Positions 23,105 through 50,597 of a stretch of DNA of 64,000 nt are shown piece after piece (position 1 is the first letter of the stretch; every line of letters starts with the position of its first letter). The notes beneath the pieces are model-generated. The model searched no databases. It saw only the letters and a list, made by a program, of their open reading frames with translations, and was not told the origin of the DNA. The stretch is taken from the NCBI RefSeq assembly GCF_055900595.2, contig NZ_CM148325.1; one strand, given 5' to 3'. Both the position numbers and the translations under genes were made by a program.

Positions 23105-23257
23105 GACCTCTCCTTTCCACCATTCAATTTCGAAACAATGTTTCCAGTTTAGCGATTTACCAGGGGGGATCCCGTAGCATCGCTCACAGTGTGACGAAAA
23201 ACTGGGCAAAAACACGTGCTTATGCTTTGCTTAAAAAAACACCAATTAAGGAGTGCA

Positions 23258-23800
23258 ATGATGCCGCGTCTGACCGCTAAAGATTTCCCACAAGAGTTGC
23301 TGGATTACTACGACTATTACGCTCACGGGAAAATTTCGAAACGTGAGTTCCTCAACCTTGCGGCGAAGTATGCGGTGGGCGGGATGACGGCATTAGCGTT
23401 GTTTGATTTGCTCAAGCCAAATTATGCGCTGGCGACTCAGGTAGAGTTTACCGACCCGGAAATTGTTGCTGAGTACATCACGTATTCTTCGCCAAATGGT
23501 CACGGCGAGGTACGGGGTTATCTGGTGAAGCCCGCAAAGATGAGCGGCAAAACGCCAGCCGTGGTGGTGGTGCATGAGAATCGTGGACTGAATCCGTATA
23601 TCGAAGATGTGGCACGGCGAGTAGCGAAGGCGGGGTATATCGCCCTGGCACCTGACGGCTTAAGTTCCGTTGGAGGTTATCCGGGTAATGATGATAAAGG
23701 TCGTGAGCTGCAACAGCAGGTTGATCCAACCAAACTGATGAATGATTTCTTTGCCGCAATTGAGTTTATGCAACGCTATCCGCAAGCGACAGGCAAAGTG
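23258..23800 (+). pseudogene. yghX: yghX 5' segment (dienelactone-hydrolase-family protein) interrupted by IS10
   Basis: ORF from ATG 23258 (MMPRLTAKDFPQELLDYYDYY...) reads in frame into the IS10 end at 23801. Confidence 0.8.
23792..23800. repeat. IS10 target-site duplication, left copy (GGCAAAGTG)
   Basis: Identical 9-bp GGCAAAGTG directly flanks both IS10 ends (23792-23800 and 25130-25138). Confidence 0.9.
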
Positions 23801-25129
23801 CTGAGAGATCCCCTCATAATTTCCCCAAAACGTAACCATGTGTGAATAGATTTTGAGTAAGCAGGGTTGCAGCCACGAGTGAGTCTTCCCTTGTTATTGT
23901 GTAGCCAGAATGCCGCAAAACTTCCATGCCTAAGCGAACTGTTGAGAGTACGTTTCGATTTCTGACTGTGTTAGCCTGGAAGTGCTTGTCCCAACCTTGT
24001 TTCTGAGCATGAACGCCCGCAAGCCAACATGTTAGTTGAAGCATCAGGGCGATTAGCAGCATGATATCAAAACGCTCTGAGCTGCTCGTTCGGCTATGGC
24101 GTAGGCCTAGTCCGTAGGCAGGACTTTTCAAGTCTCGGAAGGTTTCTTCAATCTGCATTCGCTTCGAATAGATATTAACAAGTTGTTTGGGTGTTCGAAT
24201 TTCAACAGGTAAGTTAGTTGCTAGAATCCATGGCTCCTTTGCCGACGCTGAGTAGATTTTAGGTGACGGGTGGTGACAATGAGTCCGTGTCGAGCGCTGA
24301 TTTTTTCGGCCTTTAGAGCGAGATTTATACAATAGAATTTGGCATGAGATTGGATTGCTTTTAGTCAGCCTCTTATAGCCTAAAGTCTTTGAGTGACTAG
24401 ATGACATATCATGTAAGTTGCTGATAGGTTTCCAGTTTTCCGCTCCTAGGTCTGCATATTGTACTTTTCCTCTTACTCGACTTAACCAGTACCAACCCAG
24501 CTTCTCAACGGATTTATACCATGGCACTTTAAAGCCAGCATCACTGACAATGAGCGGTGTGGTGTTACTCGGTAGAATGCTCGCAAGGTCGGCTAGAAAT
24601 TGGTCATGAGCTTTCTTTGAACATTGCTCTGAAAGCGGGAACGCTTTCTCATAAAGAGTAACAGAACGACCGTGTAGTGCGACTGAAGCTCGCAATACCA
24701 TAAGCCGTTTTTGCTCACGGATATCAGACCAGTCAACAAGTACAATGGGCATCGTATTGCCCGAACAGATAAAGCTAGCATGCCAACGGTATACAGCGAG
24801 TCGCTCTTTGTGGAGGTGACGATTACCTAACAATCGGTCGATTCGTTTGATGTTATGTTTTGTTCTCGCTTTGGTTGGCAGGTTACGGCCAAGTTCGGTA
24901 AGAGTGAGAGTTTTACAGTCAAGTAAGGCGTGGCAAGCCAACGTTAAGCTGTTGAGTCGTTTTAAGTGTAATTCGGGGCAGAATTGGTAAAGAGAGTCGT
25001 GTAAAATATCGAGTTCGCACATTTTGTTGTCTGATTATTGATTTTTGGCGAAACCATTTGATCATATGACAAGATGTGTATCCACCTTAACTTAATGATT
25101 TTTACCAAAATCATTAGGGGATTCATCAG
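23801..25129 (-). mobile_element. IS10 (IS4 family), complete 1329-bp copy
   Basis: Ends CTGAGAGATCCCCTCATAATTTCCCC (inside end, 23801) and CTGATGAATCCCCTAATGATTTTGG (outside end, reverse at 25129); contains the 402-aa transposase; 9-bp direct repeats flank it. Confidence 0.95.
23814..25022 (-). CDS. IS10 transposase
   Basis: 402-aa ORF MCELDILHDSLYQFCPELHLKRLNSLTLACHALLDCKTLTLTELGRNLPTK... recognised as IS10/Tn10 transposase. Confidence 0.95.
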   Translation of the reverse strand: MCELDILHDSLYQFCPELHLKRLNSLTLACHALLDCKTLTLTELGRNLPTKARTKHNIKRIDRLLGNRHLHKERLAVYRWHASFICSGNTMPIVLVDWSDIREQKRLMVLRASVALHGRSVTLYEKAFPLSEQCSKKAHDQFLADLASILPSNTTPLIVSDAGFKVPWYKSVEKLGWYWLSRVRGKVQYADLGAENWKPISNLHDMSSSHSKTLGYKRLTKSNPISCQILLYKSRSKGRKNQRSTRTHCHHPSPKIYSASAKEPWILATNLPVEIRTPKQLVNIYSKRMQIEETFRDLKSPAYGLGLRHSRTSSSERFDIMLLIALMLQLTCWLAGVHAQKQGWDKHFQANTVRNRNVLSTVRLGMEVLRHSGYTITREDSLVAATLLTQNLFTHGYVLGKL

Positions 25130-31056: not shown

Positions 31057-31550
31057 TGCGTATTTTAGTCTTAGGGGTTGGCAATATTTTGCTGACCGAT
31101 GAAGCCATCGGTGTGCGGATTGTCGAAGCGTTAGAGCAACGATATATTCTGCCAGATTATGTTGAGATCCTCGATGGCGGCACGGCGGGAATGGAGCTGC
31201 TTGGCGACATGGCAAATCGTGATCATCTGATCATTGCGGATGCCATTGTGTCGAAGAAGAGCGCGCCGGGAACGATGATGATCCTGCGGGATGAAGAAGT
31301 TCCGGCGTTGTTTACCAACAAAATCTCTCCGCATCAGCTTGGCCTGGCCGACGTATTGTCGGCCCTGCGCTTCACCGGTGAGTTTCCGAAAAAGCTGACC
31401 CTGGTCGGCGTGATCCCGGAATCGCTGGAGCCACACATCGGCTTAACGCCGACGGTTGAAGCAATGATTGAACCTGCGCTTGAGCATGTTCTGGCTGCGC
31501 TGCGCGAATCAGGCGTGGAAGCCATCCCACGGGAGGCGATTCATGACTGA
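31056..31550 (+). CDS. hybD: Hydrogenase-2 maturation endopeptidase HybD
   Basis: ATG overlaps the hybC stop (TAATG); MRILVLGVGNILLTDEAIG... 164 aa. Confidence 0.9.
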   Translation: MRILVLGVGNILLTDEAIGVRIVEALEQRYILPDYVEILDGGTAGMELLGDMANRDHLIIADAIVSKKSAPGTMMILRDEEVPALFTNKISPHQLGLADVLSALRFTGEFPKKLTLVGVIPESLEPHIGLTPTVEAMIEPALEHVLAALRESGVEAIPREAIHD

Positions 31551-32031
31551 AGAGATAGCAGGTTTCCAGACCTCCCCGAAGGCGCAAGTACAGGCAGCGT
31601 TTGAAGAAATTGCCCGGCGTTCGATGCACGATCTCTCTTTTCTGCATCCTTCAATGCCGGTGTATGTTTCTGACTTTACGCTGTTCGAAGGTCAGTGGAC
31701 GGGGTGTGTGATCACCCCGTGGATGCTGAGTGCGGTTATCTTCCCCGGCCCGGATCAACTCTGGCCACTGCGCAAAGTGAGTGAAAAAATTGGTCTGCAA
31801 CTGCCGTATGGCACCATGACCTTTACCGTTGGCGAACTGGACGGTGTTTCGCAATACCTCTCCTGCTCGCTGATGTCGCCGCTTTCGCACAGCATGTCGA
31901 TTGAAGAGGGCCAACGCCTGACGGATGACTGCGCACGAATGATCCTTTCGCTGCCAGTCACGAATCCGGATGTACCACACGCAGGGCGTCGCGCCCTGCT
32001 GTTTGGCCGCAGGAGTGGCGAAAATGCATGA
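31543..32031 (+). CDS. hybE: Hydrogenase-2 operon chaperone HybE
   Basis: ATG at 31543 (MTEEIAGFQTSPKAQ..., 162 aa), overlaps the hybD stop. Confidence 0.85.
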   Translation: MTEEIAGFQTSPKAQVQAAFEEIARRSMHDLSFLHPSMPVYVSDFTLFEGQWTGCVITPWMLSAVIFPGPDQLWPLRKVSEKIGLQLPYGTMTFTVGELDGVSQYLSCSLMSPLSHSMSIEEGQRLTDDCARMILSLPVTNPDVPHAGRRALLFGRRSGENA

Positions 32032-32365
32032 GTTGTCGCTTTGCCAGAGCGCCGTTGAAATTATCCAACGGCAGGCGGAGCAGCACGATGTTAAGCGCGT
32101 CACCGCCGTGTGGCTGGAAATTGGCGCGCTCTCCTGCGTTGAGGAGAGCGCCGTCCGTTTTAGTTTTGAAATTGTCTGCCACGGAACGGTGGCGCAAGGG
32201 TGCGATTTACATATCGTCTATAAACCCGCCCAGGCCTGGTGCTGGGATTGCAGCCAGGTGGTGGAGATTCATCAGCACGATGCGCAGTGTCCGCTCTGTC
32301 ATGGCGAGCGGTTGCGTGTCGATACCGGCGATTCGCTGATCGTCAAAAGTATTGAAGTTGAATAA
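32024..32365 (+). CDS. hybF: Hydrogenase nickel-insertion protein HybF (HypA paralogue)
   Basis: MHELSLCQSAVEII... with CxxC...CPxC zinc motif, 113 aa. Confidence 0.9.
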   Translation: MHELSLCQSAVEIIQRQAEQHDVKRVTAVWLEIGALSCVEESAVRFSFEIVCHGTVAQGCDLHIVYKPAQAWCWDCSQVVEIHQHDAQCPLCHGERLRVDTGDSLIVKSIEVE

Positions 32366-32377
32366 CCGGAGTTAACA

Positions 32378-32626
32378 ATGTGTATTGGCGTTCCAGGCCA
32401 GGTGCTGGCTGTCGGTGAAGATATTCACCAGCTTGCGCAGGTTGAAGTATGTGGTATCAAGCGCGACGTGAATATCGCCCTGATTTGTGAAGGTAACCCT
32501 GCCGATCTGCTGGGCCAGTGGGTGCTGGTACACGTCGGATTTGCCATGAGCATCATCGACGAAGATGAAGCCAAAGCCACATTAGACGCGCTGCGCCAAA
32601 TGGATTACGACATTACCAGCGCGTGA
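32378..32626 (+). CDS. hybG: Hydrogenase maturation factor HybG (HypC family)
   Basis: 82-aa ORF starting MCIGVPGQV (HypC N-terminal Cys2 motif). Confidence 0.9.
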
Positions 32627-32635
32627 TGATTAGCT

Positions 32636-32822
32636 TTCGTAGGCCTGATAAGACGCGACAGCGTCGCATCAGGCATTGTGCACGATTGCCGGATGCGGCG
32701 TGAACGCCTTATCCGGCCTACCGTTCGGGTGCCGATTGTAGGCCTGATAAGACGCGGCAGCGTCGCATCAGGCATTATGCACGATTGCCGGATGCGGCGT
32801 GAACGCCTTTTCCGGCCTACCT
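32636..32822. repeat. Tandem REP/BIME elements between convergent hybG and yghU
   Basis: Two near-identical ~85-bp units (GTAGGCCTGATAAGACGCG.CAGCGTCGCATCAGGCATT.TGCACGATTGCCGGATGCGGCGTGAACGCCTT.TCCGGCCTAC). Confidence 0.7.
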
Positions 32823-38320: not shown

Positions 38321-38493
38321 GAATATATCCTTTAATTTAAATATCCATTAAAAATATTTATTTGGTTAATATGTTTTTATGAAAGCGTAATTCAGGTCAA
38401 TGTCACAATTAACCATTGTCACAATAAGGTTGAACGGATATTCTGAGCACGGACCACGTAATATTCAATACATTATTTGCTGCCGGGTTTTTC

Positions 38494-40042: not shown

Positions 40043-41392
40043 TTGGCGGGTTTTAACATCAAACATTGGTTTGCAGATGGCGCGTTTCGCACCATTATTC
40101 GCAATAGCGCCTGGTTAGGCTCCAGTAATGTCGTGAGCGCTTTGCTGGGTCTGTTGGCGCTCTCGTGTGCCGGTAAAGGGATGACGCCCGCCATGTTTGG
40201 CGTACTGGTGATTGTGCAATCGTACGCCAAGTCGATCAGCGATTTTATTAAGTTTCAGACATGGCAGTTGGTGGTGCAGTACGGAACGCCAGCCTTGACC
40301 AACAATAATCCGCAGCAATTTCGCAATGTCGTCTCATTTTCCTTCTCGTTGGATATCGTCAGCGGCGCGGTGGCGATTGTCGGCGGCATTGCCTTACTCC
40401 CTTTTCTTTCCCATTCATTAGGTCTGGATGACCAAAGCTTTTGGCTGGCAGCGCTGTATTGCACGCTCATTCCTTCAATGGCTTCCTCCACGCCGACCGG
40501 CATTCTGCGTGCGGTAGATAGCTTCGACTTAATTGCTGTACAGCAGGCGACGAAACCTTTTCTGCGCGCAGCGGGGAGCGTCGTTGCCTGGTATTTTGAC
40601 TTTGGTTTTGCGGGTTTTGTTATTGCCTGGTACGCCTCGAATCTTGTTGGCGGCACCATGTACTGGTGGTTTGCCGCACGTGAATTACGCCGCAGAAATA
40701 TCCATAACGCGTTCAAATTGAATCTGTTTGAGTCTGCCCGACACATCAAAGGCGCGTGGAGTTTTGTCTGGTCAACCAACATTGCCCATTCCATCTGGTC
40801 GGCGCGTAATTCGTGCAGCACAGTGTTGGTGGGGATCGTGTTAGGACCCGCTGCCGCCGGGTTATTTAAAATCGCCATGACATTCTTCGACGCCGCCGGA
40901 ACGCCAGCGGGTTTACTAGGTAAAAGTTTTTACCCAGAGGTGATGCGTTTAGATCCGCGCACCACCAGACCGTGGTTGTTAGGCGTGAAGTCCGGTTTAC
41001 TGGCGGGCGGAATCGGTATTCTGGTGGCGCTCGCGGTGTTGATCGTCGGCAAGCCGCTCATTTCGCTGGTGTTTGGCGTTAAGTATCTCGAAGCGTATGA
41101 CCTGATTCAGGTGATGCTGGGCGCAATTGTGATTTCGATGCTGGGCTTCCCACAGGAGTCATTGCTATTGATGGCGGGAAAACAGCGTGCTTTTCTCGTG
41201 GCGCAAACCATCGCCTCAATCGGCTACATCGTATTGCTGTTCATGTTCTGTCATCTGTTTGGCGTGCTGGGGGCTGCATTTGCTTACTTCGCTGGGCAAT
41301 GTCTGGATGTGGTGCTCTCGCTAATTCCAACCTTAAAGGCATTTTTTCAGCGCCATTCCTTGCTTTATAACGCAGCCGGAGAGAAATCCTGA
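40043..41392 (+). CDS. yghQ: Polytopic membrane protein YghQ (MOP/Wzx-like flippase family), full length here
   Basis: 449-aa ORF with about 12 predicted TM helices; TTG start as given by the ORF track (true start uncertain); stop overlaps the next ORF (TGATG). Confidence 0.75.
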   Translation: MAGFNIKHWFADGAFRTIIRNSAWLGSSNVVSALLGLLALSCAGKGMTPAMFGVLVIVQSYAKSISDFIKFQTWQLVVQYGTPALTNNNPQQFRNVVSFSFSLDIVSGAVAIVGGIALLPFLSHSLGLDDQSFWLAALYCTLIPSMASSTPTGILRAVDSFDLIAVQQATKPFLRAAGSVVAWYFDFGFAGFVIAWYASNLVGGTMYWWFAARELRRRNIHNAFKLNLFESARHIKGAWSFVWSTNIAHSIWSARNSCSTVLVGIVLGPAAAGLFKIAMTFFDAAGTPAGLLGKSFYPEVMRLDPRTTRPWLLGVKSGLLAGGIGILVALAVLIVGKPLISLVFGVKYLEAYDLIQVMLGAIVISMLGFPQESLLLMAGKQRAFLVAQTIASIGYIVLLFMFCHLFGVLGAAFAYFAGQCLDVVLSLIPTLKAFFQRHSLLYNAAGEKS

Positions 41393-42228
41393 TGATGAGA
41401 AAATATTTCCCGCTTGAGGCTAGCGAGCGTCTATTTGTTGCGATTGAAGAAGATGATGTCGTTGATGCACAGGTCAGTTTGCCGCCGACTATCGCACTAA
41501 GTTGTACCACCGAAATCATCCATGATAATTACGCGTTATGCCTGAAATTCTGGCTGGATGGTGTTAATCGTCAGGAGCTACTGCGTTTAATCCGCAAACA
41601 GGCGAAAGGCGATGAGCTGACGACAGACGAGCGCAAAAAGTATAAATACATGCGAGCGCGCTACAAGCATCTGCGCTTTGCGCAACGGCTGTATTTAAAG
41701 AAGCATCAGGCCGGATTTTTATTCGGCAAAACGACCGTTTTTTTGGGGCGTTTTCAGGACGGCTTTCGTAACGGTAAGAAAAATATTGTGTCGTATTACG
41801 GCAACCTGTTACGGGTTTATTTAAGCTCTCCGGTCTGGTCGTTGGTGAACTATTCATTACGCCATAGCCAGTTAGAAAGCGTAAGCGGTTTTATTGCCTA
41901 TCGGCAAAAGCAAATGCATACCCTGAAAGAGATAATTGCCAAACCGCGACTAACTGGCAGGGAATTTCATGATGTGCGAAAAATCATCAGCCAGCAGGTT
42001 TCTTATTACGACACCCTAAGATCGCTTGATCCTGAAAATAAAGAGGCGTTACAGATTTCCCGCTTCCTCGCCGCCATTAATGGCCTGATGGGGGATAAAC
42101 ACGACGACATGGTGGCGGATGATATGGAAAACCGCCAGTCGTATGATGCACCGATGGCGCTGGATAGCGATATTCGTCAGCGCTTAGAACTGCTGATTTC
42201 GCGTTTCCCACTCTATCCGGAGCAATAA
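41392..42228 (+). CDS. Hypothetical soluble protein (278 aa), coupled to yghQ
   Basis: Start overlaps the yghQ stop; stop overlaps the next start (TAATG); no motif recognised by eye. Confidence 0.6.
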   Translation: MMRKYFPLEASERLFVAIEEDDVVDAQVSLPPTIALSCTTEIIHDNYALCLKFWLDGVNRQELLRLIRKQAKGDELTTDERKKYKYMRARYKHLRFAQRLYLKKHQAGFLFGKTTVFLGRFQDGFRNGKKNIVSYYGNLLRVYLSSPVWSLVNYSLRHSQLESVSGFIAYRQKQMHTLKEIIAKPRLTGREFHDVRKIISQQVSYYDTLRSLDPENKEALQISRFLAAINGLMGDKHDDMVADDMENRQSYDAPMALDSDIRQRLELLISRFPLYPEQ

Positions 42229-42788
42229 TGCCATCTCGTTGGATTTTCGCTCTGATCATCGCACTCTTAGCGCCAGGCGCGGTGGCACACAATTTCGTCA
42301 CTGGTAAAACGGTTACCCCTGTTTATATCCAGGAAGGCGGTGAGTTGCTTCTGAATAGCGACGACGAAATTCACTACCAAAAGTGGAACAGCACACAGCT
42401 GGCGGGAAAAGTCCGCATTATTCAGTATATCGCCGGGCGTAAGTCGGCGAAGAAAAAGAACTCACTGTTAATTAAAGCGGTTGAAGCGGCAAACTTTCCG
42501 CAGGATCGTTTTCAGCCCACCACCATTGTGAACACCGATGATGCCATCTTTGGTACCGACTATTTTGTCGTTGGCAAAATCGAAAAAAATAAACGCCGCT
42601 ATCCATGGGCGCAATTCGTTATTGACGGCAATGGACAGGGACGTGTTGCCTGGCGCTTGCCGGAGCAGAGTTCAACCATTCTGGTGCTGAATAAAAACGG
42701 GCAAATTCAGTGGGCAAAGGACGGCAGCCTGACGCCGGAAGAGGTAGATCATGTCATTGCGCTGGCGCAGAAGCTGATCAATGAATAA
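42228..42788 (+). CDS. Secreted/periplasmic protein (186 aa), possibly YtfJ-like
   Basis: Cleavable signal peptide MPSRWIFALIIALLAPGAVAHN; translationally coupled to the upstream ORF. Confidence 0.6.
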   Translation: MPSRWIFALIIALLAPGAVAHNFVTGKTVTPVYIQEGGELLLNSDDEIHYQKWNSTQLAGKVRIIQYIAGRKSAKKKNSLLIKAVEAANFPQDRFQPTTIVNTDDAIFGTDYFVVGKIEKNKRRYPWAQFVIDGNGQGRVAWRLPEQSSTILVLNKNGQIQWAKDGSLTPEEVDHVIALAQKLINE

Positions 42789-42818
42789 AAAACTCAAAGG
42801 ATTGAGGGCGTTAGTGAG

Positions 42819-43889
42819 ATGAAGCTGGTTGAACACTACATCATGCGTGGTACGCGCCGTCTGGTGCTGATTATCGTCGGTTTTCTGATCTTTATTTTCG
42901 CCAGCTACTCCGCACAGCGTTATCTGACCGAAGCGGCAAATGGGACATTAGCTCTTGATGTTGTGCTGGATATCGTTTTCTACAAAGTGCTGATTGCACT
43001 GGAGATGCTGTTACCTGTTGGACTATATGCTTCAGTTGGCGTGACGCTAGGGCAAATGTATACCGACTCGGAAATTACCGCTATCTCCGCGGCGGGGGGC
43101 AGTCCGGGACGCTTGTACAAAGCCGTTCTTTATCTGGCGATACCGCTAAGTATTTTTGTCACCCTTCTGTCGATGTATGGTCGTCCGTGGGCTTATGCGC
43201 AGATTTATCAACTGGAGCAACAGTCACAGTCGGAGCTGGATGTTCGCCAGTTGCGGGCAAAGAAATTTAACACTAACGATAACGGACGAATGATCCTTTC
43301 GCAGACGGTTGATCAGGATAATAATCGCCTGACTGACGCGCTGATTTATACTTCTACTGCCAATCGAACCCGCATTTTCCGCGCCCGTTCGGTTGATGTG
43401 GTTGACCCATCACCTGAGAAACCGACCGTTATGTTGCATAACGGGACCGCCTATCTTCTCGATCATCAGGGGCGTGACGACAACGAACAGATCTACCGTA
43501 ATCTGCAATTACATCTGAATCCGCTGGATCAAAGCCCTAACGTCAAACGCAAAGCAAAATCGGTCACGGAGCTGGCGCGCTCCGCCTTTCCTGCCGATCA
43601 TGCCGAACTGCAATGGCGACAAAGCCGTGGCCTGACAGCATTGTTGATGGCGCTGCTGGCCATTTCATTAAGTCGGGTAAAACCGCGGCAAGGGCGATTT
43701 TCAACGTTATTGCCACTGACGTTGCTGTTTATTGCCATTTTTTATGGCGGCGACGTCTGCCGTACGCTGGTGGCTAACGGCGCGATTCCCCTCATTCCTG
43801 GTTTGTGGTTAGTACCCGGACTCATGCTAATGGGCCTGCTGATGCTGGTCGCACGCGACTTCTCTTTGCTGCAGAAATTTTCCCGATGA
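42819..43889 (+). CDS. LptF/LptG-family (YjgP/YjgQ) permease paralogue, first of a pair
   Basis: 356-aa ORF with N-terminal MKLVEHYIMRGTRRLVLIIVGFLIFIF resembling LptF/LptG; predicted TM helices flanking a periplasmic domain. Confidence 0.7.
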   Translation: MKLVEHYIMRGTRRLVLIIVGFLIFIFASYSAQRYLTEAANGTLALDVVLDIVFYKVLIALEMLLPVGLYASVGVTLGQMYTDSEITAISAAGGSPGRLYKAVLYLAIPLSIFVTLLSMYGRPWAYAQIYQLEQQSQSELDVRQLRAKKFNTNDNGRMILSQTVDQDNNRLTDALIYTSTANRTRIFRARSVDVVDPSPEKPTVMLHNGTAYLLDHQGRDDNEQIYRNLQLHLNPLDQSPNVKRKAKSVTELARSAFPADHAELQWRQSRGLTALLMALLAISLSRVKPRQGRFSTLLPLTLLFIAIFYGGDVCRTLVANGAIPLIPGLWLVPGLMLMGLLMLVARDFSLLQKFSR

Positions 43890-44965
43890 ATGTTTTCAGC
43901 CGCTATTTAATCCGTCATCTCTTTCTCGGTTTTGCCGCCGCCGCAGGGCTATTGCTGCCGCTTTTTACCACCTTCAACCTGATTAACGAACTGGATGATG
44001 TCGGCCCGGGCGGTTATCGCTGGACCCAGGCGGTGCTGGTGGTGCTGATGACCTTACCGCGCACACTGGTCGAACTTTCGCCGTTTATCGCCTTATTGGG
44101 AGGGATTGTCGGCCTGGGGCAACTATCGAAAAACAGTGAGCTTACCGCCATTCGCAGCACGGGGTTTTCTATCTTCCGTATTGCACTGGTGGCGCTGGTT
44201 GCCGGGATATTGTGGACTGTTTCGTTAGGCGCGATAGATGAGTGGGTGGCGTCGCCATTGCAGCAACAGGCGCTGCAAATCAAATCGACTGCCACCGCGT
44301 TGGGGGAGGACGATGACATTACCGGCAATATGCTTTGGGCCAGGCGCGGTAATGAATTTGTGACGGTGAAATCGCTGAACGAGCAGGGCCAGCCTGTGGG
44401 CGTGGAGATATTTCATTATCGCGACGATCTCTCGCTCGAATCCTACATTTTTGCACGCAGTGCCTCCATTGAAGACGACAAAACATGGATCCTGCATGGT
44501 GTGAATCATAAAAAATGGTTGAATGGCAAAGAAACGCTGGAAACATCAGATAATCTTACCTGGCAATCGGCCTTCACCAGTATGAATCTTGAAGAGTTAT
44601 CGATGCCGGGAAATACTTTTTCTGTCCGTCAACTTAATCATTACATCCATTATTTGCAGGAAACTGGGCAACCCAGCAGCGAATACCGCCTTGCACTGTG
44701 GGAAAAACTGGGACAACCCATCCTGACCCTGGCGATGATTTTGCTGGCTGTGCCGTTTACCTTTAGTGCCCCGCGTTCGCCTGGGATGGGTAGCCGTCTC
44801 GCTGTAGGCGTCATCGTGGGCTTACTTACCTGGATCAGCTATCAAATCATGGTCAATCTGGGATTGCTATTTGCGTTGAGCGCACCTGTTACCGCGCTCG
44901 GTTTACCGGTAGCGTTTGTGCTGGTGGCGTTGAGCCTGGTGTATTGGTATGACAGACAACATTAA
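43886..44965 (+). CDS. LptF/LptG-family (YjgP/YjgQ) permease paralogue, second of a pair
   Basis: ATG at 43886 overlaps the upstream stop (ATGA); MNVFSRYLIRHLFLGFAAAAGLLLPLFT... typical LptG-like N-terminus; 359 aa. Confidence 0.7.
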   Translation: MNVFSRYLIRHLFLGFAAAAGLLLPLFTTFNLINELDDVGPGGYRWTQAVLVVLMTLPRTLVELSPFIALLGGIVGLGQLSKNSELTAIRSTGFSIFRIALVALVAGILWTVSLGAIDEWVASPLQQQALQIKSTATALGEDDDITGNMLWARRGNEFVTVKSLNEQGQPVGVEIFHYRDDLSLESYIFARSASIEDDKTWILHGVNHKKWLNGKETLETSDNLTWQSAFTSMNLEELSMPGNTFSVRQLNHYIHYLQETGQPSSEYRLALWEKLGQPILTLAMILLAVPFTFSAPRSPGMGSRLAVGVIVGLLTWISYQIMVNLGLLFALSAPVTALGLPVAFVLVALSLVYWYDRQH

Positions 44966-44999: not shown

Positions 45000-46172
45000 T
45001 TACTGCTTCAGAGTAGCGAACGCTTGAATGATGGCATCAATTTGCTCACGACTGTGGGCAGCGTTTACGCTACAGCGCAGCAGCGTGATGCCTGCAGGCG
45101 CGGCAGGTGGCAGGATAAGATTCACATAAACGCCCAGCGAAATAAGCTCGCGCCAGATGCGTAAACCTTCCTCTTTCGAACCGATTATTACTGGCACTAC
45201 CGGGCTAATATGTGAACTTAACTCATAATCCAGTTTTTGCAGACCGTCATACAGATGGTTGGCATTATCCATCAGCTTTTGCCGCAACTCTGGTTGTGAG
45301 GCAATGGTTCTTAACGACGAGCGCACGGTCGCAATGCAGGACGGAGAAGGAGAGGCGGTAAAAATATACGGGCGGCTGCCGTAGCGCAACACTTCCATCG
45401 CTTCCGAACCGACAGCAAAACCGCCAATCGAGGCCAGACTTTTACTGAAGGTACCAACGATAATATCCACATCATCTTCAACGCCAACGGCTTCAGCCAG
45501 TCCGCGCCCCGTTGCGCCTAACACGCCAAACGAATGCGCTTCATCGACAATCAAATAACCACCGAGACGACGTTTGATATCAACAATTTCCGCCAGCGGC
45601 GCAACGTCACCGAGCATACTGTAGATGCCTTCAACGATGATAATCGCCTCTTTTGCCCGTTCACCGAGGCGAACCATGCGCCGTTCCAGATCTTTAGCAT
45701 CGTTATGGCGGAAACGAATAATTTCCGCGCCACCGAGAGAACAGGCGTCATAAATACTGGCGTGGCTGTCGGCATCCAGTAACACCACGGCGTTATGGTC
45801 GGCAAGTGCGCTGATGACGCCTAAATTAGCGGTATAACCGGTTGAAAAAACGATAGCGGTAGGGCGATTAAAAAACTCGGCGATCTCTTTCTCTAACGCC
45901 AGATGCGGCGCATAACTGCCGTTTGCCATACGAGAACCGGTGGTGCCGGTGCCTTGGGCCGCTAACGCTGCCTGACCTTCGGCGATGGCATCATGATTAA
46001 AGGTTAAACCGAGATAATTATTGGTCCCGGCCAGAATCACTTTTTTATTGCCGATCCGACCTTCGGTGGCGGAATACACTTCATCAATACAGGTGCCAAA
46101 CGGTGTTAACCCGTTGTCACTAAATTGCAGTCGCTCGCCAGCAAGGCGCGCATATTTATCGTATAGCCCCAT
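45000..46172 (-). CDS. PLP-dependent alpha-oxoamine synthase, serine-palmitoyltransferase-like
   Basis: 390-aa ORF with PLP-lysine motif GTFSKSLASIGG and DEAHSFG motif characteristic of SPT/KBL/BioF enzymes. Confidence 0.8.
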   Translation of the reverse strand: MGLYDKYARLAGERLQFSDNGLTPFGTCIDEVYSATEGRIGNKKVILAGTNNYLGLTFNHDAIAEGQAALAAQGTGTTGSRMANGSYAPHLALEKEIAEFFNRPTAIVFSTGYTANLGVISALADHNAVVLLDADSHASIYDACSLGGAEIIRFRHNDAKDLERRMVRLGERAKEAIIIVEGIYSMLGDVAPLAEIVDIKRRLGGYLIVDEAHSFGVLGATGRGLAEAVGVEDDVDIIVGTFSKSLASIGGFAVGSEAMEVLRYGSRPYIFTASPSPSCIATVRSSLRTIASQPELRQKLMDNANHLYDGLQKLDYELSSHISPVVPVIIGSKEEGLRIWRELISLGVYVNLILPPAAPAGITLLRCSVNAAHSREQIDAIIQAFATLKQ

Positions 46173-46420
46173 TATTTATTCTCCAGCCATGGAAGTAGTG
46201 TTTCCATTAATTGCGCAGGGGTTTTGACATCCAGCAGAATATTAATAGGAATGGAAATATCGAATCTGTCTTCCAGCATCATTAAGAGATCCATCACTTT
46301 GATCGACTCCAGGCCAAGATCGTTGACGAGATCGCTGTCGGGCTTAATTTCCACACCGTTTTCGACCAAATCCTGTAAACAGGAAAGGATGTAATCCATT
46401 ACTATTTCACGATTTACCAT
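46172..46420 (-). CDS. Dedicated acyl carrier protein
   Basis: 82-aa acidic ORF with phosphopantetheine-site motif DLGLESI; stop overlaps the SPT-like gene start. Confidence 0.75.
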   Translation of the reverse strand: MVNREIVMDYILSCLQDLVENGVEIKPDSDLVNDLGLESIKVMDLLMMLEDRFDISIPINILLDVKTPAQLMETLLPWLENK

Positions 46421-46451
46421 AGAAACGTTAACACACCTTTAAACAAGACAA

Positions 46452-47366
46452 TCAAAATAGCCCGTTGCGTAATGCGTGTTCCAGGCTAATCCCGGGAAAC
46501 CAATTAATATCTTCAGAAATACGGTTATTACTTGCTGACCAGTCGGCGTGGGTTAATTCACGGATTTTCGAGCGGGTCAGCATAGGTTCTTTACCTGCCA
46601 GGCGACTCAACGCGGTACTGATATCCGCAAGGCAGGTGAGTACCGACAGAGGAATACCAACCATTCGAACGGAACCGCAACGGGCGTCGGCGGCAAGTTG
46701 CTGTACGCGTTGCCAGTCATAGCCGCCGGCGACGCCATCGCATAATTCATAGGTTTGCGTCTGTACAGTTTCGGCGCTTAACCACTGCCCCACGGCTTGC
46801 GCGAAATCGGTGACGTGCAGGAAAGAGAGCTGTGTATCTGGCGCACCAAGTCGTGGCAGCAGGCCGCGCAGCATCCAGTCAAACAGCGGTTTTAACTCTT
46901 TATCGCCGGGACCATACACGGCTGTCGGGCGAAAAATGCCCAGCGTAATTTCGTCAGCCATTGCGGTCAGTCGTTGTTCGGCGACGTGTTTGGAATTTGC
47001 GTACCAGGAGAGTTCGGGATGACGCGCCGCCAGCGAAGAGATAAACAGAAAACGTTGGCAAAAGCCGCTCTCTTTTGCCGCTTGCATCAGGCGCAGGCTG
47101 CCGTCAACGTTACAGCGGGTAAAAATCTCTTCTTTGTGTCCGCGCACTTGTCCGGCGCAATGGACCACCGCGCTGGCTCCGGCAACCAGTTCGCTAAGCG
47201 AATGTGTATCTTCCAGCGAACCGCGCACCCAGATGAGATTATCATTGACGTGAGCGCGGGCAGTACGCGTCAATGCGCGAACGTGAAAGCCGCGGGCGAG
47301 CAGGTTATCGATAATATATTTACCGATAAACCCGGTAGCGCCCGTCACCGCGACAGTTTGATTCAT
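46452..47366 (-). CDS. NAD(P)-dependent epimerase/dehydratase-family reductase (extended SDR)
   Basis: 304-aa ORF with Rossmann motif VTGATGFIGKYI and YxxxK motif (YANSK); start overlaps the FAAL stop (ATGA). Confidence 0.75.
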   Translation of the reverse strand: MNQTVAVTGATGFIGKYIIDNLLARGFHVRALTRTARAHVNDNLIWVRGSLEDTHSLSELVAGASAVVHCAGQVRGHKEEIFTRCNVDGSLRLMQAAKESGFCQRFLFISSLAARHPELSWYANSKHVAEQRLTAMADEITLGIFRPTAVYGPGDKELKPLFDWMLRGLLPRLGAPDTQLSFLHVTDFAQAVGQWLSAETVQTQTYELCDGVAGGYDWQRVQQLAADARCGSVRMVGIPLSVLTCLADISTALSRLAGKEPMLTRSKIRELTHADWSASNNRISEDINWFPGISLEHALRNGLF

Positions 47367-49084
47367 GCCAGGGATTCCTGCACATGAAGGCTTGCAGCAT
47401 AAGCCTTCTGATAACGTTTTTTCGCTTCCGCACGGGCAGGCTTGCCGGAGGACGTTCGGGGAATACTGTGGGGCGGCAACAGATCGATAGCCGCGGTTAC
47501 GCCAAATTCGCTTTGGATCCGTGCTGCCAGTGCGTGGATAAGCTGCCCACGACGTTCTTCGTCGCTGATCCTACACTGGATCTGCAGAATGATTTTTTCC
47601 TGGGCGGTAACAAAAGCAATCGCATCGCCAGAATGAATTTCCGGTTCCTGTTCCGCAATATATTCAATATCCTGCGGCCAGATATTACGGCCACGAATAA
47701 TAATCAGATCTTTAATGCGTCCGGTGACATACAGATAACCGTCCAGCAGATAACCGAGGTCGCCGGTATCTAACCAGCCCGTCGCGGCAATCTCGTCTTG
47801 CGAAACCTGGTCGCCAAAGTAACCGCTCATCAGGCTGGGGCCGGAGATGCAAATATGGCCTACCACACGTTCCGCGACCGGCATACCTGCTTCATTGCGG
47901 ATTTCAATGCCATGTTCCGGCAACGCTTTACCGCAGTTGACGAAAGTCGATACGGCGCGTGTTTCAGCACCCGGCGCGACGGCTTTGCCCTGATATTCAA
48001 GGATGTCGCGATCCACTTCGTTAACCACAACCCCGGAGGCTTCATCAGAGAAGCTGACAGCCAGCGCATTTTCTGCCAGTCCGTAGCACGGCATGAACGT
48101 TTTATCGTCAAAGTTAACCTGACGGAAACATTCAGCGAATTGATGGAGTTGTTCTGCGGAGATGGGTTCTGCACCAATACCAGCGACGCGCCAGCAGGAA
48201 AGATCCAGTTCAGCGAGATCTTTTTCATTCACGCGGCGCTGGCACAATTCATAGCCAAACGGCGGCGCAACGGAAACGGTGCCGCGATTTTTACTGATCA
48301 ATTTAAGCCATTGCAGAGGACGCATGGCAAAATCCTGAGTGCGCAAATAATCTACTGAAAGCTGCGTGGCGACGGGGGTCAGGAGAAAGCCGACCAGTCC
48401 CATATCATGGTAGAAAGGCAGCCAGGAGACGCAGCGGTCGCCAGGGCGTAATTTAATGCCATCGTGGCTTATAGCACGTAGATTAGCCATCACTTCGCGA
48501 TGGGTGATAATGACGCCACGGGGAAAACGGGTGCTGCCGGAGGTGTACTGGAGGTAGGCGATATCGTTCGGAACTGGATGCTGGAGTGCAACATCGGCTT
48601 CCGGTAATGCCTTAAACCAGGCGTGGCTTAAAACATGTAATTCGGGGTTGTTATGCGTAGCGGCATTGACCAGTGGCAACCACTCATCACCAGTGATAAT
48701 GGCTGCGGGCTGGCAACTTGCCAGTAAACCCTGCAGTTTGGCGCTCCAGGAATCCCGCTGACCGATGCCCATTGGAATCGCCAACGGGACGGCGACTAAG
48801 CCGGCATACTGGCAGGAAAAAAAAGCCTCTACGAACCCGCTACTGGTTTCGGCAATCAGCGCCACGCGATCGCCTTTTTTCAGGTTCAGCGATAACAACC
48901 GCTTCGCACCAGCTTCGGCACGCGCTTTTAACGTCTGATATTCCAGTTGATCTTCAAGTTGGCAACGTCTGTCATAAAAATTCATTCCGGCGCTACTCAG
49001 AGCGGCGTAGTCCAAAGCATCAACCAGCGTTGGAAAATCGGCATAGCGCATAGGTAGGGAATGCGTAAAGATTTTATTAGACAT
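47363..49084 (-). CDS. Fatty acyl-AMP ligase / acyl-ACP synthetase (FAAL-type adenylating enzyme)
   Basis: Start set at ATG 49084 (MSNKIFTHSLPMRYADFPTL...; the ORF track's 49111 start is TTG); AMP-binding motif YTSGSTRFPRGV resembling FadD32-type FAALs. Confidence 0.8.
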   Translation of the reverse strand: MSNKIFTHSLPMRYADFPTLVDALDYAALSSAGMNFYDRRCQLEDQLEYQTLKARAEAGAKRLLSLNLKKGDRVALIAETSSGFVEAFFSCQYAGLVAVPLAIPMGIGQRDSWSAKLQGLLASCQPAAIITGDEWLPLVNAATHNNPELHVLSHAWFKALPEADVALQHPVPNDIAYLQYTSGSTRFPRGVIITHREVMANLRAISHDGIKLRPGDRCVSWLPFYHDMGLVGFLLTPVATQLSVDYLRTQDFAMRPLQWLKLISKNRGTVSVAPPFGYELCQRRVNEKDLAELDLSCWRVAGIGAEPISAEQLHQFAECFRQVNFDDKTFMPCYGLAENALAVSFSDEASGVVVNEVDRDILEYQGKAVAPGAETRAVSTFVNCGKALPEHGIEIRNEAGMPVAERVVGHICISGPSLMSGYFGDQVSQDEIAATGWLDTGDLGYLLDGYLYVTGRIKDLIIIRGRNIWPQDIEYIAEQEPEIHSGDAIAFVTAQEKIILQIQCRISDEERRGQLIHALAARIQSEFGVTAAIDLLPPHSIPRTSSGKPARAEAKKRYQKAYAASLHVQESLA

Positions 49085-49454
49085 ATACACCACGAAAAAA
49101 TTGGATATCAAAAATAAAATGACAATAATGCGGTGGATTATATAGGCATAAAAGATAAATGAGATAGTATTTTCATCAGTGTGAAAATGAACATTGATTT
49201 AAATAATGAGTTTGAGTTTTTTGTTTTTATTGTGAATGATATTTAATTTATGAATGTATTAAGAAGAAGCCTTGTCCGGTCGCCTTAAATCGACAAAAGG
49301 CATTGTGGCGCTTCTGTGTAGTCTCTGACCTTATCGTAATCATTAATAAATGCTATTTATTCGTCGTTTGTATTCATTGGGTTGATTATTAAGGTGCCGT
49401 TCGTTGCTGTTGCAACCTGTTTGTCACCGTTAATTATTTGTTACCCACAGAACT
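49085..49454. promoter_or_regulatory. AT-rich divergent intergenic region (probable promoters for the FAAL operon and yghO)
   Basis: 370 bp of strongly AT-rich sequence with poly-A/T tracts between divergent genes; no individual promoter element is called. Confidence 0.4.
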
Positions 49455-50597
49455 ATGGAATGCGATCTGCTGATGATTAAAATTGAAAAAGTAATTAATA
49501 AAAATGACCTTAAGGCATTTATCGCTTTTCCGTCATCACTTTATCCCGACGATCCAAACTGGATACCCCCTTTATTCATTGAACGCAACGAGCATTTGTC
49601 TGCGAAAAATCCGGGGACGGACCATATCATCTGGCAGGCGTGGGTGGCAAAAAAAGCCGGGCAGATAGTTGGGCGAATTACCGCGCAAATCGATACCTTG
49701 CACCGTGAGCGTTACGGTGAAGATACCGGTCATTTCGGCATGATTGACGCCATTGATGATCCGCAGGTTTTTGCCGCGTTGTTTGGCGCAGCGGAAGCGT
49801 GGTTGAAGTCACAAGGTGCAAGTAAGATCAGCGGTCCTTTCAGCCTGAATATCAATCAGGAAAGCGGATTACTGATTGAAGGTTTCGATACACCACCCTG
49901 TGCGATGATGCCGCACGGTAAACCGTGGTATGCCGCGCATATTGAACAATTGGGTTATCACAAAGGCATTGATTTACTAGCGTGGTGGATGCAGCGAACC
50001 GATCTCACTTTCTCTCCGGCGCTAAAAAAACTGATGGATCAGGTGCGTAAGAAGGTGACCATTCGCTGCATCAATCGCCAGCGGTTTGCCGAAGAGATGC
50101 AGATCCTGCGTGAGATTTTCAACTCTGGCTGGCAGCACAACTGGGGATTTGTGCCGTTTACCGAACATGAATTCGCGACTATGGGCGATCAACTTAAATA
50201 TCTGGTGCCGGACGATATGATCTACATCGCTGAGATTGATTCTGCACCCTGCGCGTTTATTGTTGGCTTGCCAAACATCAACGAGGCGATTGCCGATCTG
50301 AACGGATCGCTCTTTCCCTTCGGCTGGGCAAAATTGCTGTGGCGTTTAAAAGTCAGCGGTGTGCGAACTGCGCGAGTACCGCTGATGGGCGTGCGGGACG
50401 AGTATCAGTTTAGCCGCATCGGCCCGGTGATTGCGCTGTTATTGATTGAAGCCTTACGCGATCCGTTTGCCCGCCGGAAGATCGATGCGCTGGAAATGTC
50501 ATGGATCCTCGAAACCAATACAGGCATGAATAACATGCTGGAACGCATTGGGGCAGAGCCGTACAAGCGTTACCGATTGTATGAAAAGCAGATTTGA
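49455..50597 (+). CDS. yghO: YghO, acyl-CoA N-acyltransferase-like protein, apparently full length
   Basis: 380-aa ORF (alternative start at ATG 49473); recognised as the full-length counterpart of the K-12 yghO remnant. Confidence 0.7.
   Translation: MECDLLMIKIEKVINKNDLKAFIAFPSSLYPDDPNWIPPLFIERNEHLSAKNPGTDHIIWQAWVAKKAGQIVGRITAQIDTLHRERYGEDTGHFGMIDAIDDPQVFAALFGAAEAWLKSQGASKISGPFSLNINQESGLLIEGFDTPPCAMMPHGKPWYAAHIEQLGYHKGIDLLAWWMQRTDLTFSPALKKLMDQVRKKVTIRCINRQRFAEEMQILREIFNSGWQHNWGFVPFTEHEFATMGDQLKYLVPDDMIYIAEIDSAPCAFIVGLPNINEAIADLNGSLFPFGWAKLLWRLKVSGVRTARVPLMGVRDEYQFSRIGPVIALLLIEALRDPFARRKIDALEMSWILETNTGMNNMLERIGAEPYKRYRLYEKQI

Follow-up and report, generated by a model that had tools for sequence, protein, structure and literature searches.

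The 370-bp spacer that separates aasR from yghO is a divergent control region serving the E. coli ceramide genes known from the literature, with the operon aasR-epi-acpR-spt on one side and yghO on the other. It is made of two very different parts: the 94 bp adjoining aasR are almost invariant, while the centre of the spacer is hypervariable. The contrast between the core and the centre, a candidate aasR promoter within the core and the corrected start codons are new; the ceramide genes themselves had been described before, and there is nothing unusual in a region of this type. With modest confidence we adopt a joint reading, in which the two sets of genes share one regulatory region with weak promoters and a conserved core, and H-NS is a probable contributor to their control. 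The spacer occupies positions 49085–49454 of a 64,000-nucleotide stretch of the E. coli chromosome, which we refer to in full as the window. The chromosome of E. coli KY1497 matches the window at 100% identity, and the gene layout was taken from the RefSeq annotation of that record. The operon runs leftward from the spacer and yghO runs rightward:

47363–49084, minus strand: aasR (the FAAL gene), first gene of the operon, fatty acyl-AMP ligase / acyl-ACP synthetase (annotation, Pfam AMP-binding, NCBIfam)
46452–47366, minus strand: epi, NAD-dependent epimerase/dehydratase family (annotation, Pfam Epimerase)
46172–46420, minus strand: acpR, specialised acyl carrier protein, 40.6% GC (annotation, Pfam PP-binding)
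45000–46172, minus strand: spt, serine palmitoyltransferase (NCBIfam equivalog, Pfam aminotransferase domain)
49455–50597, plus strand: yghO, proposed N-acyltransferase and homologue of bacterial ceramide synthase (annotation)

The product of spt scores 596 bits against the NCBIfam equivalog NF047599 (cut-off 500) and that of aasR 875 bits against the fatty acyl-AMP ligase subfamily NF006624 (cut-off 600), while no Pfam or NCBIfam model matched yghO. As in ceramide clusters of the Rhodobacteria type, acpR precedes spt, and aasR and an epimerase-family reductase lie nearby. In BL21(DE3) the sphingolipid genes are ECD_02850–02854 (Padilla-Gomez et al., 2022, Geiger laboratory, PMC9386255), where aasR is described as a specialised acyl-ACP synthetase, acpR as a specialised acyl carrier protein and epi as a proposed keto-sphinganine/ceramide reductase. 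The same work regards yghO ('aca', ECD_02850) as homologous to Caulobacter crescentus CC_1154 and proposes that it is an N-acyltransferase; it also demonstrates serine palmitoyltransferase activity for the BL21 Spt protein (PMC9386255). The corresponding set of Caulobacter crescentus consists of CC_1154 and CC_1162–1165 (Olea-Ozuna et al., 2021, as cited in PMC9386255). Gene content and order are the same in BL21(DE3) as in the window, and the BL21 spacer is nearly identical to ours. The ceramide papers on these two organisms (that on Caulobacter crescentus as far as it is cited in PMC9386255) treat the enzymes and are silent on the spacer, its promoters and regulation.

Several features of the surroundings deserve a record. 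Within an operon of otherwise 52–55% GC, acpR and the 31-bp gap that follows it (32% GC) form a local dip in GC at 46172–46451. Second copies of lptF and lptG lie at 40043–44965, convergent to spt, and are accompanied by a YtfJ-family gene, a hypothetical gene and a 'lipopolysaccharide biosynthesis protein' gene at the yghQ position; these genes could form a dedicated export route for the lipid of the cluster. Elsewhere in the window strain, the IS3-family element IS1397 adjoins hybG (31321–32669), and yghX (23166–24050) is frameshifted according to the annotation.

The divergent arrangement is widespread. A scan of one genome per species for relatives of yghO gave 45 loci. In 42 of these, from Enterobacterales and Pseudomonas, a divergent ligase gene lies upstream of yghO, and wherever the retrieved flank is long enough epi, acpR and spt then follow the ligase gene. 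The genera with this layout include Serratia, Erwinia, Pantoea, Citrobacter, Hafnia, Rosenbergiella, Tatumella and Pseudomonas. The 42 spacers are 303–1128 bp long and their GC content is 6–24 points below that of the flanking genes; between genera they align poorly except near both start codons.

These alignments bear directly on where the spacer begins and ends. In RefSeq the FAAL gene starts at 49051, and the initial annotation had placed its ATG at 49084. Alignments from Pseudomonas to Escherichia show in-frame conservation of the 11 codons that the ATG at 49084 adds upstream of the RefSeq start (MSxxxxTHSLPMRYADFP), and the alignment to the NF006624 profile begins six residues upstream of the RefSeq methionine. 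The boundary at 49085 is therefore correct, and the RefSeq gene is probably 33 nt too short (lacking 49052–49084 on the minus strand). On the other side, nearly all other genera start yghO at an ATG that aligns to 49473 and is preceded by a TAAGG ribosome-binding site. Escherichia has GCGAT at that place, and the annotated start of the gene is the ATG at 49455, 18 nt farther upstream, which has no obvious ribosome-binding site. The ATG at 49473 is thus probably the ancestral start, and yghO may be poorly translated in Escherichia, given the lack of an obvious ribosome-binding site at the annotated ATG. With its start codons backed by cross-genus alignment, the spacer separates two divergent genes and contains no further gene.

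A separate observation concerns the genera with long spacers, in which the start of aasR carries the block GGTGATTTTGAATCTATGGCTnnnTTTGTmTATGTCTGAAACAAG, whose conservation between Pseudomonas and Serratia extends to the nucleotide sequence. The block spans about 60 nt around the aasR start (loci L008–L048, for example ~3263–3330 of L008), and the Escherichia version differs. Depending on the species, the upstream ATG of the block is in frame or, as in Serratia marcescens and Klebsiella indica, frameshifted.

The composition of the spacer sets it apart. The initial annotation described it as a strongly AT-rich divergent control region of 370 bp, and profiling of AT content upholds this description together with its coordinates: the flanking genes diverge, and the non-coding DNA between them has 32.2% GC, compared with 51.3% in the window, 53.2% in the FAAL gene and 49.4% in yghO. 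Of the 370-bp windows across the 64 kb, no more than 0.8% reach this AT content, and the 100 bp at 49151–49250, with 20% GC, are the most AT-rich of the whole window. The window has 22 annotated intergenic regions that are 80 bp or longer, and four of them, the spacer included, form a class apart at 30–32% GC; the remaining 18 range from 40 to 61%. The other members of this class are yghT/yghS (38321–38493), qseB/ygiW (1080–1230) and glcA/sslE (60044–60526).

What could such a composition mean? It falls in the range favoured by H-NS, and bgl, proU and hlyE are E. coli promoter regions of this AT-rich kind that are silenced by H-NS/StpA. The spacer resembles them in being long, AT-rich, non-coding and placed upstream of genes that seem to be poorly expressed. 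One reading, which we consider unlikely, is therefore that of a curved promoter pair rich in A-tracts, with silencing by H-NS (and StpA) as the main control that keeps the cluster off in the laboratory; the extended AT-rich DNA, down to its 100-bp minimum, speaks for it. Another reading, somewhat improbable in our view, if less so than the previous one, is that of an ordinary divergent region with weak, activator-dependent promoters, where H-NS has no meaningful role and the AT-richness comes from the composition of promoters and upstream elements together with relaxed, AT-biased change in non-coding DNA. AT-rich spacers at the same position in genera that differ widely in GC agree with this second reading, and the gap between the spacer and the 18 GC-richer intergenic regions of the window goes against it.

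Intrinsic curvature and phased A-tracts are a classical, though not obligatory, trait of H-NS-silenced promoters, and our calculations find neither in the spacer. Within 403 bp we counted 10 homopolymer A/T runs that are 4 nt or longer, which is in the top 2.4% for the window; however, dinucleotide shuffles of the spacer yield 9.0 ± 2.1 such runs, so the multiple A/T tracts that were noted initially are indeed present but do not constitute a feature independent of composition. A 10–11 bp phasing of AA/TT dinucleotides was looked for in the spacer and is absent. We calculated curvature with our own implementation of a wedge model, the parameters of which follow Bolshoy et al. (1991) and are approximate; in this model phased A6 tracts, as a control, give 26 degrees per turn and unphased or random DNA 5–7. 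The mean for the spacer is 6.0 degrees per turn versus 6.2 for the window, with local peaks of 14.7 at 49102 and 16.7 at 49163. The initial description of the region as curved is thus not supported, and the reading with H-NS silencing as the main control loses with it both the tracts and the bend on which it drew.

The strongest signal in the spacer comes from comparison within Escherichia. Six lineages were aligned (KY1497, CFT073, E. whittamii, two cryptic-clade genomes and one divergent E. coli), with third codon positions as the neutral proxy (37% variable columns; codon bias ignored) and first and second codon positions, with 5% variable columns, as the reference for constraint. Although six lineages are few, counts over 4145 genomes agree in direction. 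The following segments were distinguished, none of them assigned to a strand:

49085–49178: conserved core adjoining the aasR start, 26.6% GC; 5 of 94 columns vary (5%), P = 6e-13 below the proxy
49179–49335: fast-evolving centre (alignment of the six Escherichia lineages)
49266–49335: hypervariable part of the centre, split into two classes of haplotype and containing indels; 44 of 70 columns vary (63%), P = 1e-5 above the proxy
49384–49411: moderately conserved yghO-proximal block (GATTATTAAGGTGCCGTTCGTTGCTGTT); 5 of 28 columns vary (18%), P = 0.025 below the proxy

The core is under purifying selection of a strength equal to that on first and second codon positions, which is the constraint beyond neutral that is expected of a promoter/operator region, and the centre evolves faster than third codon positions. 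Of 5426 complete E. coli genomes 4145 carry the core, and in 2945 of these carriers (71%) its identity is 99% or higher. An equally long central segment (49242–49335) finds a match in 3633 genomes, of which only 203 (5.6%) attain that identity, and about 500 genomes that bear the core have no match to this segment. The core can also be aligned in part to Pseudocitrobacter, Citrobacter and Hafnia. The two divergent haplotypes at 49266–49335 suggest either recombinational replacement or very relaxed constraint. A centre that varies at or above the neutral proxy is in line with an ordinary divergent region, while silencing by H-NS alone would leave unexplained why 94 invariant bp stand beside equally AT-rich, fast-evolving DNA.

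Among individual strains, the spacers of CFT073 and BL21(DE3) are identical to each other despite the different lineages of the two strains, and differ from that of the window by 3 substitutions and 2 indels; in CFT073 the spacer lies at 3,544,845–3,545,253. Relative to the window, these two strains have an extra ACAGA copy at 49446–49447, directly upstream of the yghO start, and one more T in the T-run at 49216–49222. Some part of 48600–50000 is matched by 4555 of the 5426 complete genomes and most of it by 4091. K-12-type strains match from ~49495 on, without the spacer and without the 5' end of yghO.

Can promoters be recognised in this DNA? We scanned both strands with a simple position-weight matrix (PWM), for which the hexamer frequencies are approximate, and searched for transcription factor sites with 20 consensus strings, also approximate, each of which was tested against shuffles. 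The sites of interest are:

49137–49142, minus strand: perfect −10 element TATAAT of the predicted aasR promoter, the top PWM site in the spacer (9.2), in the invariant core
49160–49165, minus strand: weak −35-like element ATCTCA (3 of 6), 17 bp from the TATAAT, predicted from the PWM scan
49101–49129, plus strand: promoter-like site directed toward yghO, TTGGAT-17-AATAAT, inside the core (consensus and PWM, 8.3; speculative)
49410–49437, plus strand: yghO-proximal promoter-like site, TTGCAA-16-AATTAT, with a predicted start at ~49444 (PWM 7.9; speculative)
49429–49443, plus strand: ArcA-box-like direct repeat GTTAATTATTTGTTA, 13 of 15 matches to an approximate consensus (a weak lead)

The candidate aasR promoter in the core, for which a hexamer match and conservation argue together, would start transcription at ~49130 and give a leader of ~45 nt. 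In Pseudocitrobacter a TATAAC in a similar context is aligned to its TATAAT (TTTACCTTTTATGACAATATAAC). On the other hand, its −35 element has only 3 of 6 matches, and AT-rich DNA yields many promoter-like sites by chance: sites scoring at least 8 occur at 16 per kb in the spacer versus 2.1 per kb in the window, and on neither strand of the spacer does any site score 10 or more. The promoters predicted on the two strands are thus all weak: on the minus strand the perfect TATAAT is paired with a poor −35, and the plus-strand sites score lower still. Basal transcription in both directions should therefore be low and should need an activator or derepression. The plus-strand −10 of the 49101–49129 site is just 7 bp from the minus-strand −10, and the two predicted promoters would therefore overlap and compete. 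Divergent sigma-70 promoters that overlap within one regulatory region form a general class, and the spacer resembles it in having two genes 370 bp apart with opposed −10 elements in one conserved block. It differs from this class in that both sites here are predicted and weak and the one facing yghO would need a leader of ~320 nt. The yghO-proximal site at 49410–49437 is disrupted in the E1V33/SCPM haplotype. That the sigma-70-like sites are all weak and the core is conserved also speaks for the reading as an ordinary divergent region.

None of the 20 transcription factor motifs was significant in the spacer after correction. The ArcA-like site had P = 0.01 uncorrected, which was lost after correction for 20 motifs, and its first repeat varies among haplotypes; a FadR-like site had P = 0.02, which likewise fails correction for 20 tests, and it is not kept across haplotypes. 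A sigma-54 pattern was uninformative, with 332 matches in the window against 334 expected, and at 49384–49411 the GG-GC spacing, judged by eye, is 11 nt rather than 10. The search for repeats in the spacer gave just short, low-identity pairs of the kind that AT-rich DNA would give.

Control could in principle reside in RNA instead, with a long leader of yghO or aasR acting as riboswitch, attenuator or thermosensor, and two structural features point that way, along with the spacers of up to 1.1 kb in other genera. In Erwinia persicina a long hairpin followed by a T-run lies upstream of yghO, and in the window there is one comparable element:

49403–49416, plus strand: small terminator-like hairpin GTTGC/GCAAC followed by a T-rich run (pattern match; a 7-nt deletion in one haplotype)

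That deletion removes half of the hairpin in one Escherichia haplotype, and the leader around it shows no significant fold (z = −0.5). Searches with Rfam, at permissive E-values for the spacer and at the gathering score for 15 related loci, returned only two chance snoRNA matches, and RNAalifold found zero consensus pairs in 16 yghO leader sequences. Fold z-scores were about 0 in 42 of 43 leaders, and the E. coli leaders fold like their shuffles (z = −0.07 and −0.49). The spacer thus contains neither a known family nor a conserved structure of cis-regulatory RNA, and control by RNA, which these results largely refute, is in our judgement highly improbable. We give just as little credence to a gene for a small protein or small RNA hidden in the spacer. 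Many promoter-like sites are on offer for such a gene, as are four short ORFs of 21–32 codons; these ORFs, however, lie in the variable, indel-rich part, and none is kept across the 42 related spacers. A small RNA gene finds no match in Rfam and no stable fold. The spacer is non-coding.

We now return to H-NS. Matches to the high-affinity H-NS motif (of the type TCGATAAATT) are not enriched, with 76 in the window against 67 ± 8 expected, and the spacer has a single match with two mismatches; a nucleation motif of the kind that marks H-NS-silenced regions was not found there. ChIP-seq of H-NS and StpA in CFT073 was deliberately analysed over coding regions, with intergenic DNA left unscored (Hustmyer et al., 2022, PMC9765446). 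In the order of its list of H-NS-bound genes, c3698 (kpsM) is followed by c3714, yghS, yghT and c3752 (PMC9765446). We identify c3714, which is 249 nt long, as acpR, because acpR is the sole unnamed 249-nt gene from yghD to yqhG and counting genes back fits kpsM as c3698. On this identification, and for coding regions only, acpR, yghS and yghT are bound by H-NS/StpA in CFT073, while aasR, epi, spt and yghO are not listed (PMC9765446). The spacer between yghS and yghT (173 bp, 30% GC) is in the same low-GC class as ours, and both of its flanking genes, ~700 bp each, are bound.

This pattern cuts in both directions. Binding of acpR within the operon and of the neighbouring yghS and yghT gives the locus a likeness to H-NS-controlled regions, speaks for silencing by H-NS as the main control and goes against an ordinary region where H-NS plays no part. 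The absence of aasR and yghO from a list on which yghS and yghT appear argues against a broad H-NS filament at the spacer and agrees with the ordinary-region reading. The case for H-NS binding is thereby weakened, and a peak confined to the 400-bp spacer could have been diluted in flanking genes of 1.1–1.7 kb. The spacer further differs from H-NS-silenced regions in its lack of predicted curvature and of motif enrichment, and in the nature of the cluster that it serves, which has a host-like GC of ~52% and is ancestral to Escherichia rather than recently acquired; it is therefore not a typical foreign target. In the literature searched we found nothing that ties H-NS or another regulator to the ceramide locus, no paper on H-NS and serine palmitoyltransferase in E. 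coli, and none on expression of the locus in hns mutants. H-NS silencing of the spacer is plausible rather than shown. That H-NS acts as a contributor, neither demonstrated nor the sole mechanism, we regard as evenly balanced.

How silent, then, is the cluster? In BL21(DE3) grown at 30 °C in complex medium, empty vectors or spt alone gave no new lipid, and formation of 3-oxo-sphinganine required plasmid copies of aasR, acpR and spt together (PMC9386255). These data fit weak native expression of the operon, and they are consistent with the reading that makes H-NS the main control. Sphinganine-like and ceramide-like spots were seen as well, for which the authors suggest chromosomal ECD_02852 (epi) and ECD_02850 (yghO) as the source (PMC9386255). 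If chromosomal epi and yghO do convert 3-oxo-sphinganine, silence may be incomplete, with both directions partly transcribed. The initial proposal that the cluster may be silent under laboratory conditions thus gains indirect support from the need for plasmid-borne aasR, acpR and spt, and the suggested activity of chromosomal epi and yghO speaks against complete silence.

The joint reading that we adopt brings these observations together as follows. The conserved core would carry the aasR promoter and probably also a site for protein binding, which remains putative. The promoters predicted in the spacer are weak both ways and would give low basal transcription that requires an activator or derepression. 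H-NS/StpA are likely to bind or nucleate at 49085–49260, where the DNA is very AT-rich, and this would add to low expression in ordinary culture.

Viewed as a sequence feature, the spacer is of an ordinary kind, a divergent promoter region rich in AT, and its regulatory core is what makes it useful. The spacer and the ceramide genes are present together in roughly three quarters of complete E. coli genomes; because both the spacer and the 5' end of yghO are missing from K-12, the locus has escaped the standard regulatory maps. We found no account in the literature of the activation of native ceramide genes or of natural sphingolipid production by E. coli. The 94-bp core offers a small, defined target for the study of this regulation, and the value of the spacer is practical rather than conceptual. 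A more far-reaching idea, which we hold to be doubtful, is that the core comprises the putative operator and promoter of a signal-responsive switch, through which most E. coli would make ceramide only under a particular host or environmental condition. Were this so, the belief that E. coli is free of sphingolipids would reflect the loss of the locus from K-12 and the fact that the right condition was never tried.
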